Below, piece after piece: positions 8,781-14,485 of a DNA stretch of 64,000 nt. The notes beneath the pieces are model-generated. The model made no database searches, was not told where the DNA came from, and saw nothing but the letters and a program-made list of their open reading frames with translations. A program made the position numbers and the translations under genes. This stretch comes from a virus: the IMG/VR virus record IMGVR_UViG_3300044998_001357, positions 32,001 to 96,000 of that record. One strand, given 5' to 3'. How positions within the stretch are numbered: the first letter of the stretch is position 1; each line of letters begins with the position of its first letter.

Positions 8781-9000
8781 TTTAACCCTTCTTGTTCTTT
8801 GGCTTTTCTGGGTTACTAGTAATGGTCGTGAACATGGTCTTAGGCCTGTTTACGACCTTTAGCTGAGAACGCTCATCATTCGTGCCCACCTATGCCCCGG
8901 CGATGAGTAAAATCGCCATTGGCGCATGTAAGATTGTTTTGGTATTGATTCGGTGATGACTGGTCTTTGTGGATGTTTACTTGGCCTCCTAGGAGAAAAA

Positions 9001-10134
9001 ATGAAGTCGACACATCGCTCGGAAGTCGTACCAGTGGTTCTGCAGAAGCACCCCAACGCGGATAGCCTATCCATTGTTAAGGTATGGGGCTACACCTGCA
9101 TTGTTCGAACGGTCGACTGGCAGGGAAGGTCGCGTGGCGTTTATATTGTTCCCGATAGCTGCGTGGATGTACGCCGACCGGAGTTCTGTTTCCTGGCGGA
9201 TAAGGCCAAAGAAGATGGGACGTACCGTGTTCGGGTCACCCGGCTGCGCGGCGAACTGAGCTATGGTCTGCTCATTCCCGCCCCGGACTGGGCCGAACTG
9301 GGCCAGGACTTGGCTCCGTATCTGGGTGTGACCCGCTACGAGCCACCGGAACACTCACGTGGCTTCATCGCTTCGGGCGAGGAGGAGGAGGGGCCTGACC
9401 TCTGCACCGGTCCGGAAAAGTACGACGTGGAGGCGTTCGAGCGTTACCACCACCTGCTGGAGGTGAATGAGCCGGTGGTGGTTCTTGAAAAGCTTGACGG
9501 CACCAACATGCGGGCGGTTTACTGGGAGGGTCGTTACTGGGTCAAGACCCGTAATCGTTGGGTCAAGCGCGTGCCGACCTACTCACACATCACCCTAGAT
9601 TCCCTTATCGGTCGTGGCGTGGCGGAAGAGCAGGCCCGGGAAATTGTTGAGCGGATTGCCAATCGCTGCCCTAAACTGAACAGCCACTGGGAGGCTCTCG
9701 AAAATAGTCCGGCCACAATGAAGTTTCTCAAAGAGAATCCGGGGATGACCCTCTACGGCGAGGTGTTTGGCGCGACGAACCGAATTCGCTACTGGAAGCA
9801 TGGCAAGAATCGTTTGGCGGTTTTTGACATCTATGACCAGGGCGTTTTCCTGAATGCCGGCAACACCTGGCGTCTGGGCGTAGCCAACGACCTGGAGATG
9901 GTTCCTGCGTTCACCCCTTTCGCAGGAGGGCGTACCTCGTTTGCTTTTCATGGCACCCCCTACAAGTTCGACACCATCAAGCGGCTGGCCACGGGAACCA
10001 CTCTGGTGGAGGGTGCCGGCTGTGCAGTGATTCGTGAGGGGGTCGTGGTTCGTCCACTCCAGGAGCGTTACGACCCCAAGATTGGCCGGGTGATTCTCAA
10101 ATGTGTCAGTCCTGATTTTTTGGTAAAGGATTAA
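9001..10134 (+). CDS. ATP-dependent RNA ligase, DRB0094/Rnl5 type
   Basis: N-terminal HPNADSL OB-like domain; motif I EKLDGTN, GEVFG, FDI, REGVVVRP, RVILKCVSPDFL. Confidence 0.9.
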   Translation: MKSTHRSEVVPVVLQKHPNADSLSIVKVWGYTCIVRTVDWQGRSRGVYIVPDSCVDVRRPEFCFLADKAKEDGTYRVRVTRLRGELSYGLLIPAPDWAELGQDLAPYLGVTRYEPPEHSRGFIASGEEEEGPDLCTGPEKYDVEAFERYHHLLEVNEPVVVLEKLDGTNMRAVYWEGRYWVKTRNRWVKRVPTYSHITLDSLIGRGVAEEQAREIVERIANRCPKLNSHWEALENSPATMKFLKENPGMTLYGEVFGATNRIRYWKHGKNRLAVFDIYDQGVFLNAGNTWRLGVANDLEMVPAFTPFAGGRTSFAFHGTPYKFDTIKRLATGTTLVEGAGCAVIREGVVVRPLQERYDPKIGRVILKCVSPDFLVKD

Positions 10135-10523: not shown

Positions 10524-10886
10524 ATGAACGATGCACTAAGCAAAATTATTATGACAACGAATGAGACTTTTGCCGAGATGGGAATCATCGTAGGAGCACC
10601 GCCTCGGCATCCGGACTGGCACAGAGTACGCAAGGCCTGGCTAAAACTTCAACCCGTTTGCCAGGCCTGTGGCGGAACCGATAAGCTTGAGGTTCACCAC
10701 ATTGTGCCGTACTGGAAAGAACCCCGGTTGGAGCTTATCGTTACTAATTTGATTACTCTGTGTGATGCGCCCTATCGGCACTGTCACTTCATTGTCGGTC
10801 ACCTTATGCACTGGGCCAGCTGGAACCCGGATGTTCGCGAGGACGCCCAGCGGCTGCTCGACAAGATACGTTCTCGACCCCGTTGA
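10524..10886 (+). CDS. HNH endonuclease
   Basis: CQACG..LEVHHIVP...NLITLC..CHFIVGH. Confidence 0.88.
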   Translation: MNDALSKIIMTTNETFAEMGIIVGAPPRHPDWHRVRKAWLKLQPVCQACGGTDKLEVHHIVPYWKEPRLELIVTNLITLCDAPYRHCHFIVGHLMHWASWNPDVREDAQRLLDKIRSRPR

Positions 10887-11219: not shown

Positions 11220-11312
11220 ATTGTATGACGAAGTTGCTCACTTGTTTACTCTTTATAGATTCGTCGTTGCGGCAGTCGGCCATCGCGTTTGTGCGGTCAA
11301 GGGTGCAAAAAA

Positions 11313-11681
11313 ATGAGAACTGGATGGATTCTGTTGCTCCTGGTTGGGTTGGTATGGGGTGCTCCGTTGCCCTCGGAGCGACCCCGACCTTCTCTTACTG
11401 CCCACCGCTGGATGATGCGGCACGGTAGCAGTCTTTTTTGGGCGCGTTTCTATCCTTGTGGGCAGTATTACGCGGGGCCTGGAGATAAGTCGGCTATTTT
11501 GTGGCACGGCAACTGGGTTCTGCAGGGCGATATCTTGACCGTTGAAGAATTTTCCATCTGGGATACCGCTAAGGAGAACCGGGTTGTTTACTGGTCGGTG
11601 TGCCTGGATAAGTCTAGCTGGACCGGTGAACGCATTACCTGTTCAGGATTTGTTGATGAGTTTTCTCTTGAAGGAGACTGA
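11313..11681 (+). CDS. Putative exported protein
   Basis: Signal peptide MRTGWILLLLVGLVWGA-P. Confidence 0.5.
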   Translation: MRTGWILLLLVGLVWGAPLPSERPRPSLTAHRWMMRHGSSLFWARFYPCGQYYAGPGDKSAILWHGNWVLQGDILTVEEFSIWDTAKENRVVYWSVCLDKSSWTGERITCSGFVDEFSLEGD

Positions 11682-11682
11682 G

Positions 11683-12448
11683 ATGACCGCGAAAAATCGA
11701 ATCCCTCTTTCCCCCTCGGTTCAAACGCGACAAGACTGGCTTTGAGGACGCAACGGAAATTATTCTGGAAGTCCTCCACGGCGAGGGCGGGCAGGATGCC
11801 AAGCTTTTTGTAGAGCAGCTGGCCGACCTCTACCTCCGCTATGCCGCACGTCATTCGATTCGTGTTTTCGTTCTGGACAAATCGCCGGGTCATTGCGTTT
11901 TTCGGTTGCAGGGCAAGGGGGTGGGCCACCTTTTTGCTCGCGAGGCCGGAAAGCACTGCATTCAACGTATCCCCTCCAACGACCGTTCGGGTCGTCCGCA
12001 AACCTCGTTTGTGAGCGTGGCGGTTCTCCCCTTACCTCCCGAAAACACGGTGACTCCTCTGCCCGAAAACGAACTGCAGATTACCGTCCAGACCGGAAAG
12101 CAAAGGGCCGGTGGCCAAAACGTCAACAAGGTGGCCAGTGCCGTGCGGATGAAACATCTACCCACGGGTTTGTCGGTCTTTATCCATGGTCGAGACCAGG
12201 GCCAGAACAAACAAGAGGCCCGACGCATTCTGACCGCCAAGGTCAATCAGCTACGAAACGCCCAACGACAGGAAGATTACTCCCGACTCAAAAATGGGCA
12301 ACTGGGCGAGCGCGGCCGGGGCGGGAAAATCCGGACCTATAACTTTATCGATGGTCGGGTAACCGACCACCGGAGCGGTCAGACCACCAATAATCTGAAG
12401 GGTCTTATGAAGGGCAACCTCGAGCTTCTTGCAAATCTGTCTGATTAA
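11683..12448 (+). CDS. Class I peptide chain release factor homolog (RF1-like, lacks domain 1), probably translated via a +1 frameshift at CTT-TGA (11740-11745)
   Basis: AAGGAG RBS and ATG 11683 open 20 codons ending CTT TGA. The +1 frame gives EDATEIILEVLHGEGGQDAKLF..LYLRYA..EAGKHCIQRIP..TSF..AGGQNVNKVASAVR..KIRTYNF..RVTDHR. Confidence 0.85.
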
Positions 12449-12610: not shown

Positions 12611-12979
12611 ATGTCAACGCTAGAACATGTGCAGATTTGCCTCAGTCAGGCACTTGGAATGCCTATCGACGAAATCTGGGAAGATACTCTGCTGCATGAA
12701 CTGGGGGCCGATAGCCTGGATTTCCTCGATATCACCTTTCGTCTAGAACGTCGTCTGGGAGTCTCCCTGCAAACCACGGCACTGTTCCCGGAGTGGCTTC
12801 TGGAGACCAATTCGGAATACGTGCATCGGGGCAACTTAACCAGCAAGGGTGTCCAGCGACTGACAAAGGAGCATCCCCAAGTGCCGGCCAGGGAAGGGAT
12901 GCCGGCAGGTGATGTGTTAACCGTCGGCTTCCTGGTCCAGGTTCTGGACCGCCTGCTGGTTCCATCGGGAGCAAAATAA
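12611..12979 (+). CDS. acpP: Acyl carrier protein (long planctomycete-type insertion)
   Basis: LGADSLDFLDITFRLE phosphopantetheine site; GGAGGT RBS. Confidence 0.85.
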   Translation: MSTLEHVQICLSQALGMPIDEIWEDTLLHELGADSLDFLDITFRLERRLGVSLQTTALFPEWLLETNSEYVHRGNLTSKGVQRLTKEHPQVPAREGMPAGDVLTVGFLVQVLDRLLVPSGAK

Positions 12980-13387
12980 ACAATCAGGGTCGTGGTCCCA
13001 ACTCGGACGCCCACAGTGAATACACAGTGGGCAGTCCTGGGTTGCCCACCGGGCTTTTTGATGGAGATTGCAACCGCACAGTTTGCAACCACCCTTATTG
13101 TAAAAACCACAGGATTGACATGTGGCCATGCGCTGTTGAAATACCGCTTCTGAAACCAGGGGCGCTCCCTGTAGCACGTGTTGCGCCGCCGCCTGTACAA
13201 AGCGGCCGACCTTGTCCAGAAAGGTGGGCTCGGTCCATAGTTGACGATAGGCCGGATTATAGTGGAATAGCCAGCACAGTCTGCACTGGTCGGAGGTGTA
13301 GGGTGCTCCAGTCACTCGCTCGCAGGTGCAGGGACGATTACTGGGTGATGGTAAAGTTGAAGCTTCCATTGTTGAAGATATTCCCAT
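12917..13387 (-). CDS. Cys-rich protein (DUF6171-like)
   Basis: RMATCQSC...CKLCGCNLHQKARWATQDCP; start uncertain. Confidence 0.6.
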   Translation of the reverse strand: MGISSTMEASTLPSPSNRPCTCERVTGAPYTSDQCRLCWLFHYNPAYRQLWTEPTFLDKVGRFVQAAAQHVLQGAPLVSEAVFQQRMATCQSCGFYNKGGCKLCGCNLHQKARWATQDCPLCIHCGRPSWDHDPDCLFCSRWNQQAVQNLDQEADG

Positions 13388-14029: not shown

Positions 14030-14485
14030 ATGTCGACCAAGATTTCTTGCCTGCTGCTTGTTGATAGCAACGAATCCGAACGCTCGTTGACCCGCCGTAA
14101 ATTGGAAATCGCTCGAGTGAATATCGATACACTCTCGATAGCCACAACCCTCAGTGAGGCGATATCGCTGGTTCAGAAGTCCGACCCGCAGGTGATTCTG
14201 CTTGAGACCGACCTCGCCGATTCGCATGCTCTGGATACGCTCCGGGCGCTGCGACGAATAAGCGAGGCGGCGATTGTCGTTCTGTCTCACGGTGAGGATG
14301 ATTTTTCTGGACTTTGTGCCATCCGGGCCGGGGCCGATGACTATCTTCTCAAAGAGAAGCTAAGTCCCGCTGCCCTGCGACACGCCATCTATAACTCCCT
14401 GTCGCGACACGAATTGAGGCAGGCAACGCAGCGAATGACCGCGCGTATTGAACAACTAGCCATGATTCCTGGGGTGGCTCAATGA
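14030..14485 (+). CDS. Stand-alone response-regulator receiver domain (atypical)
   Basis: LLVDSN, PQVILLETDLADS (phospho-Asp position is Glu), IVVLS, AGADDYLLK. Confidence 0.85.
   Translation: MSTKISCLLLVDSNESERSLTRRKLEIARVNIDTLSIATTLSEAISLVQKSDPQVILLETDLADSHALDTLRALRRISEAAIVVLSHGEDDFSGLCAIRAGADDYLLKEKLSPAALRHAIYNSLSRHELRQATQRMTARIEQLAMIPGVAQ

Follow-up and report, generated by a model that had tools for sequence, protein, structure and literature searches.

A short RF1-type phage release factor predicted to be expressed through a prfB-style programmed +1 frameshift

The phage described here encodes a short RF1-type release factor (domains 2-4) that belongs to a widespread accessory family. 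We are confident, from comparative sequence evidence, that it is expressed by a programmed +1 frameshift and that the UGA codon gating the frameshift most likely reports on host RF2. CUU-UGA +1 programmed frameshifting is the textbook case of a release factor that controls its own synthesis. The device is regarded as RF2-specific, and to our knowledge bacteria use it only for RF2.

The window that we analyzed is a stretch of 64,000 nucleotides, bases 32001-96000 of a 148,783-bp IMG/VR virus record with a CheckV completeness of 99%. All coordinates below are those of the window.

The release factor locus and its product

The release factor gene is preceded by an ORF of 130 amino acids on the plus strand (11289..11681) with no Pfam match, whose TGA stop (11679-11681) lies just 5' of an ATG (11683-11685). 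Embedded in the 3' end of this upstream ORF is a Shine-Dalgarno (SD) sequence, AAGGAG (11671..11676, plus strand), spaced 6 nt from the ATG. The ATG opens a leader ORF in frame 0 (11683..11742, plus strand) of ATG plus 19 codons, with the sequence MTAKNRIPLSPSVQTRQDWL and a net charge of +2. Its 20 sense codons end with CTT (11740-11742), followed by TGA (11743-11745) and a G (11746). The putative shift cassette TGG CTT TGA G (11737..11746, plus strand) would place UGG in the E site and the slippery CUU in the P site, with UGA as the gate stop and G as the next base.

The release factor itself is encoded in the +1 frame, which is closed by a TGA at 11684-11686 and then open from 11687 to a TAA at 12446-12448 (253 codons). 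According to a frame scan, the first canonical start codon (ATG, GTG or TTG) in this frame is the TTG at 11906..11908 (plus strand), leaving no start 5' of the GEGG motif. Initiation at this TTG would yield a 180-aa product without 54 conserved domain 2 residues, which align to T. thermophilus RF1 104-160. The original prediction had rested on these features, namely an AAGGAG ribosome-binding site with an ATG at 11683 opening a 20-codon frame that ends CTT TGA (11740-11745), a release factor frame open from 11687 with no ATG, GTG or TTG until 11906, and the loss of a conserved helix upon initiation there. All of them are found at these positions, and the slipped product that it put at about 254 aa is indeed 254 aa long (P0001).

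After the +1 slip, the release factor frame (11744..12448, plus strand) would encode residues E21-D254, followed by TAA 12446-12448, and comprise RF1 domains 2, 3 and 4. The junction reads ...QDWL-EDATEIILEV, and the predicted junction peptide is QDWLEDATEIILEV. Release factor homology sets in precisely with residue 21, which is the first to be decoded past the slip. Pfam recognizes the C-terminal half of PCRF (profile positions 97-194) and a complete RF-1 domain in the slipped product. The NCBIfam prfA (RF1) model aligns to residues 21-249 over positions 101-334 of 347 with 197.5 bits, compared with 142.9 bits for prfB (RF2), 49.8 for PrfH and 26.1 for ArfB. The product stays below the RF1 equivalog cutoff of 400 (TIGR00019 / NF001859) and, as domain 1 is absent, is not a full-length RF1. 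It is likewise below the cutoffs for PrfH (TIGR03072, 166.65), with no adjacent RtcB, and for ArfB (NF006718, 100), and it possesses a PCRF decoding domain, whereas ArfB consists of a GGQ domain with a basic C-terminal tail and has no domain for codon recognition. Solved RF1 structures match with an E-value of 3e-40 (RF1 residues 104-333) and RF2 structures with 4e-28, in line with the original assignment as RF1-like rather than RF2-like. The 40% identity to solved RF1 over 225 residues fixes the fold.

The catalytic GGQ (G143 G144 Q145; 12110..12118, plus strand) is intact and occupies an invariant alignment column. The decoding loop Pro-Ser-Asn-Asp (PSND; 11972..11983, plus strand) occupies the position of PxT, the RF1 tripeptide, and its adjoining Glu. 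It reads Q-R-I-P-S-N-D where RF1 has Q-R-V-P-x-T-E, so that the window departs from the PxT motif (PSN-D), while most relatives have PPT-E. By sequence, the predicted product is an RF1-like factor of domains 2-4 that retains GGQ and is missing domain 1. In passages quoted in PMC1586002, RF1 without domain 1 is described as capable of peptide release in vitro and functional in vivo (Mora et al. 2003), and stimulation by RF3 as requiring RF1 domain 1.

The window site lacks two elements of the prfB cassette, as the original prediction had cautioned. There is no SD-like run in the 15 nt 5' of the CTT (acgcgacaagactgg; caagactgg directly precedes CTT), and the base after UGA is G rather than the C of the weak prfB-type termination context. 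No significant stimulatory RNA structure was detected at the site (fold z = +1.0). A local hairpin begins within the stop codon and is too close to act as a stimulator. Slip efficiency in the window may be low, given the missing internal SD and the G rather than C after UGA. By analogy with mutational work on prfB, slipping is probably inefficient unless termination is slow.

An alternative genetic code was considered and rejected, since the two frames differ, tRNA genes are absent and TGA ends 47 of the 105 long ORFs in the 149-kb phage genome (TAA 44, TAG 14). ARAGORN identified no tRNA (0) and no tmRNA (0) in this genome, its GC content is 54.8%, and the phage uses the standard code. The genetic neighborhood upstream of the factor gene includes an Rnl-type RNA ligase with a PHA02142 OB-fold (8953-10134), 1.6 kb away, and a free-standing HNH endonuclease (10524-10886). 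Downstream are an acyl-carrier-like protein (PP-binding, 12611-12979), a DUF6171-like Cys-rich protein on the minus strand (12917-13387) and a stand-alone response-regulator receiver domain (14030-14485), all three of which are unusual phage cargo.

Conservation of the shift cassette in a family of short factors

A protein search identified thousands of short (about 200-290 aa) RF1-like relatives. Gene calls that extend upstream carry, some 13 residues ahead of GEGG, a conserved Phe-Asp/Glu or Phe-Ser. This is the expected footprint of TTT-GAN or TTT-AGN, which corresponds to NTT TGA or NTT TAG in the -1 frame. DNA was retrieved for 125 loci, of which bacterial and archaeal genome assemblies contributed 22, IMG/VR 23 and metagenomes 80, and the 111 distinct ones, including the window, were analyzed by script. 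They comprise contigs of phages (33-533 kb) and of metagenomes as well as bacterial MAGs, at 40-63% identity. One locus is a true prfB (L021). It was picked up by the same scan and, as its canonical site was detected at codon 25, acts as an internal positive control; the counts below are over the remaining 110 distinct loci.

CTT followed by a stop in the leader (-1) frame, inside an open release factor frame, occurs in 92 of the 110 loci, mostly 9-17 codons before GEGG. The same scan of the control frames returned 1 case (other frame) and 0 cases (release factor frame), so the arrangement is, on these sequence counts, far beyond chance. In all 92 loci the site is at the same domain-1/2 boundary, and about 85% of the diverged relatives thus keep the device at the same spot. 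Three further loci have P-site variants, GTT TGA in L079 and L125 and ATT TAG in L122. All 95 +1-type loci keep NTT-T, which would allow the P-site tRNA to re-pair on TTT.

The surrounding features are shared to varying degrees. The release factor frame has no ATG, GTG or TTG before GEGG in 53 of the 92 loci and none upstream of the site in 74. An ATG leader with a recognizable SD is present in 59 loci, with a median length of 20 codons that equals the window leader. The leader peptides are not conserved in sequence, are hydrophilic and are net positive in 51 of 57 cases; a composition test based on Lys+Arg content failed to separate the leader frame from others. In 31/92 loci, CTT is preceded at a distance of 3-4 nt by an SD-like run (GGAG, GAGG or GGGG), compared with 4.5% at random positions of the same genes. 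The gate stop is followed by C in 63 of the 92 loci, by G in 20, by T in 7 and by A in 2, and the TGA-G context of the window is found at 18 of 50 TGA sites. The E-site codon is TGT, TGG or TGC in 52/92 loci, and the window's TGG is of this family type.

Together, the CTT-stop in 92/110 loci and the leader SD and ATG provide comparative support for the programmed +1 frameshift that had been predicted from the single locus. These sequence comparisons strongly support a prfB-style frameshift as the gate of an RF1-like phage factor. The alignment of homologs that had been proposed as a check revealed no continuous-ORF pattern; the same break recurs at the same codon.

The remaining members of the family have other arrangements. 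In four loci (L089, L094, L111, L120), the leader is in frame with the factor and ends in TGA-AGR immediately 5' of domain 2. Six others (L034, L084, L098, L109, L113, L117) have a plain SD and ATG start, with an internal TGA (5) or TAG (1) 24-28 codons after GEGG and past the 'KYA' helix. These ten relatives with in-frame stops may represent either readthrough gates or recoded genomes. In L106 (about 2490-2527), the TGA of an 11-codon leader overlaps the GTG start of the factor (GTGA), a termination-reinitiation arrangement, and four loci have an ungated plain start. What the gate designs share is a stop codon that would have to be bypassed before the factor is made.

Two explanations would dispense with programmed frameshifting altogether. 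The gene could be broken by an indel introduced in assembly or by a frameshift mutation that arose recently in the phage, which we consider highly improbable. The window derives from a single metagenomic assembly, and our search found no near-identical second assembly in which the base count could be checked; a 99% match (P0003) was rejected as such because it is the protein of the window itself, annotated from an internal start. A broken gene does not account for the same break, codon and hexamer in 92 diverged relatives, for a 253-codon open release factor frame with GGQ and all family-invariant residues intact, or for a leader with a consensus SD and ATG. The break, the SD and ATG leaders and the startless frames shared across relatives make a sequencing error or recent mutation very unlikely. 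Alternatively, the leader could be a regulatory upstream ORF and the factor could be produced by termination-reinitiation or internal initiation, either from the non-canonical ATT ATT CTG at 11759-11767 (with GAGG 11 nt upstream) or from TTG 11906. The GTGA overlap in L106 is a classic coupling arrangement, four relatives have plain in-frame starts 7-15 codons before GEGG, and gene callers begin many homologs at an internal Met or Val. Reinitiation leaves unexplained both the invariant CTT (or GTT/ATT) before the stop and the fixed -1 phase of the leader in 95/110 loci. Further arguments against it are the 53 loci without any canonical start before GEGG, the release factor homology and conserved residues that start directly past the site, and the 54 conserved residues that initiation at TTG 11906 would cost. 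We regard it as improbable.

The short factor is not tied to a particular gene neighborhood. A conserved operon partner comparable to that in the PrfH-RtcB pairing was sought and rejected, as the nearest neighbors are diverse across loci. HNH endonucleases occur in 5/119 neighborhoods, RRF and a poly(A)/CCA polymerase are single cases, and an RlaP nucleotidyltransferase is within 2 kb of the factor in 7 loci. An RNA ligase of the type in the window recurs in one other locus only (L108, 2 kb from the factor), and the RNA-repair link is loose and not conserved. In 17 loci (L002:564-2342 and 16 related ones), the gene directly upstream of the factor combines a Hint/intein splicing domain with an HNH endonuclease. 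Of the 18 distinct IMG/VR loci, 15 carry the +1 gate, with contigs reaching 533 kb. The short factor coexists with full-length RF1 and RF2 in three bacterial genomes, and in the order of one Melainabacteria MAG (L016) it was found in 6 of the 41 genomes sampled. This coexistence and sparse occurrence indicate that it is an accessory, third class-I factor whose distribution is patchy and looks mobile.

Gate codon, decoding loop and the reader of the gate

In the proposed mechanism, ribosomes would initiate at ATG 11683 behind the strong SD, translate the 20-codon leader and pause while CUU (Leu) occupies the P site and UGA the A site. Host RF2 would terminate the majority at this gate and release the 20-aa peptide. 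In a minority, the peptidyl-tRNA-Leu would re-pair from CUU to UUU, GAG would be read next, and translation would proceed to TAA 12446. In the resulting 254-aa factor, domain 1 would be replaced by the former leader, now a short, basic N-terminal tail. Because slipping would compete with termination at this gate, slower UGA termination should increase output. Consistent with a gated supply, unregulated overexpression of RF2 has been reported to be toxic (PMC12421855). Slipping itself, its efficiency, its RF2 dependence and the codon specificity of the factor are all inferred from sequence.

Given the RF1-like decoding elements of the factor, the UGA gate would be read by host RF2 and most likely reports the activity of RF2 rather than that of the factor itself, as the original prediction had proposed. 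If the factor is RF1-specific and recognizes UAA and UAG, TAG gates in the family could be autoregulatory, and TGA gates, including that of the window, would be read by host RF2.

The choice of stop codons lends this reading indirect support. The gate stop is TGA in 50, TAG in 41 and TAA in 1 of the 92 loci. The true terminator of complete short-factor genes is TAA in 64 of 89 (72%), compared with 33% in flanking genes. For TAA usage, Fisher tests yield p = 5e-11 at the terminator and p = 5e-13 at the gate, over loci that are not phylogenetically independent. The gate is thus almost always a codon of one bacterial release factor only, whereas the real stop is the codon of both. In a maximum-likelihood tree, TGA and TAG gates alternate repeatedly among close relatives. 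Eleven TGA/TAG sister pairs (46-80% identity) have the same alpha-5 tip and decoding loop and no consistent coupled substitution, and the idea that the gate stop is coupled to decoding residues was rejected because these pairs show no coupled change. As the gate swaps between sisters with identical decoding loops, at least one gate class would be unreadable by an RF1-specific product. Gate stop identity was linked neither to GC content (p = 0.41) nor to the stop usage of neighboring genes (p = 0.17).

The loop itself is variable in a subset of the family. The consensus is PPTE, and Asn occupies the third loop position in 6/48 TGA-gated and 0/41 TAG-gated genes. A double change from Thr-Glu to Asn-Asp recurs in L047, L062, L036/L044, P0009, P0013 and P0058, and the informative cases are all TGA-gated. 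On the tree, Asn arose in at least 5 separate places, usually together with the Glu-to-Asp change and always within TGA-dominated clades, so the association between a PxN loop and a TGA gate (6 vs 0) is suggestive and phylogenetically confounded. At two other decoding positions, the family replaces the alpha-5 Glu of RF1 with Asp and the His that precedes Thr-Ser mostly with Gln.

These variations raise the question of whether the product could regulate itself as in prfB. The PSND loop in place of PxTE means that the specificity of the factor could include UGA; a switched or omnipotent short factor would then terminate at its own gate and keep its level steady, and host RF2 would only be a co-reader. 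The confinement of third-position Asn to TGA-gated genes, its repeated origins, mostly with Glu-to-Asp, and the two further departures of the family from RF1 are consistent with this reading, which we nevertheless deem unlikely. The Asn lineages all fall in TGA-dominated clades and offer no phylogenetic contrast, most TGA-gated genes keep PPTE, the 11 sister pairs have identical decoding elements, and the Pro at the first loop position is RF1-like. Moreover, a factor that reads all three stops would leave the near-absence of TAA gates in need of another explanation. It is also rather unlikely that the slip is a fixed low-level attenuator without any sensing, by which a strong start would yield a potentially toxic factor in small and constant amounts. 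The window lacks the SD and 3' C that make prfB responsive and efficient, and stop identity drifts between TGA and TAG, as might be expected of such an attenuator. An attenuator could use any slow codon; the zero-frame A-site stop is kept in 95 of 95 +1-type loci and TAA is nearly excluded, which indicates competition with a single release factor class.

Monitoring of host RF2 by the UGA gate could be taken one step further. As a possible, if doubtful, extension, the locus may be a cross-wired homeostat in which an RF1-derived, RF3-independent phage factor is made in proportion to the slowness of host RF2 at UGA. If so, the phage would top up termination capacity, or bypass a shortage imposed by the host or by a defence, only when needed. 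In a sharpened form of the idea, the recurrent PxND loop would be a natural switch of the RF1 scaffold to UGA reading and the gate would be truly autoregulatory.

Related systems and significance

The arrangement resembles bacterial prfB in its short zero-frame ORF with its own start, CUU in the P site, a stop in the A site and a +1 slip into a class-I release factor. The bacterial site consists of an SD, 3 nt and CUU UGA C (PMC12421855; GeneTack logo in PMC3711429), and the SD-like run 3-4 nt upstream in a third of the relatives and the C after the stop in 63/92 follow this pattern. Of the hallmarks of the prfB cassette, the window has the slippery CUU before an in-frame stop, a main frame that is +1 to a short ORF with its own start and a site that is conserved across diverged homologs (92/110). 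The product is RF1-like, whereas prfB encodes RF2, the reader of its own gate codon. The leader takes the place of domain 1, with the site at the domain-1/2 boundary; the prfB site is around codon 25 of a full-length protein. The gate of the family is UGA or UAG about equally, whereas TAG was undetected in the prfB motif (PMC12421855). The family prefers UGU or UGG in the E site, the window has no SD and a G after UGA, and the setting is phages and accessory bacterial genes.

Other systems share single aspects. Mimivirus R726 and Megavirus mg280 are also viral termination factors that need recoding at internal stops, which has been read as autoregulation, and their frameshift stop likewise varies between relatives, being UAG in one and UAA in the other (PMC3521657). 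They are of the eRF1 (eukaryotic/archaeal) type, belong to giant viruses of amoebae and require two recoding events; the factor described here is of the bacterial RF1 type, belongs to a tailed phage and would require one +1 event. PrfH (RFH), which is paired with RtcB2, also has no domain 1, keeps GGQ and is accessory and patchy (PMC1586002, PMC9304027, PMC6514570). It differs from the short factor, which has conserved RF1-like decoding elements and no RtcB partner, and no frameshift has been described for prfH. Recoded phages (Lak, Jade, Agate; bioRxiv 10.1101/2021.08.26.457843) also encode bacterial-type class-I release factors, but these are full-length RF1 or RF2 accompanied by suppressor tRNAs and a changed code, with neither a frameshift gate nor domain 1 loss reported, whereas the phage here has no tRNA genes and uses all three stops. 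A truncated E. coli RF1 with domain 1 removed is reported to be active and unstimulated by RF3 (Mora et al. 2003, as quoted in PMC1586002). That protein was a laboratory construct, and the truncation in the phage factor is natural, conserved and combined with a putative recoding gate.

A literature search that covered few subscription journals found no published description of the device for RF1-type or phage genes. According to a 2025 survey of 12,753 genomes, autoregulatory frameshifting has been shown for prfB and not for prfA; the pseudogenes of prfA included no compelling case of programmed frameshifting, and TAG was not detected in the prfB motif (PMC12421855). A 2016 review of recoding called a UAG/RF1 counterpart unknown and mentioned only the giant-virus eRF1 case (PMC5009743). 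The words phage and frameshift are absent from a 2019 survey of release factor evolution (PMC6514570), and RF2 is the sole release factor listed in the GeneTack study (PMC3711429).

Gene callers systematically mis-annotate the family, producing 5'-truncated proteins or arbitrary N-termini. As predicted here, the family would extend the CUU-stop device to an RF1-type factor in which UGA and UAG gates are interchangeable and a leader replaces domain 1. It provides natural material for testing which release factor reads the gate codon, what makes a stop without an SD prone to slipping and why phages with the standard code carry a termination factor.
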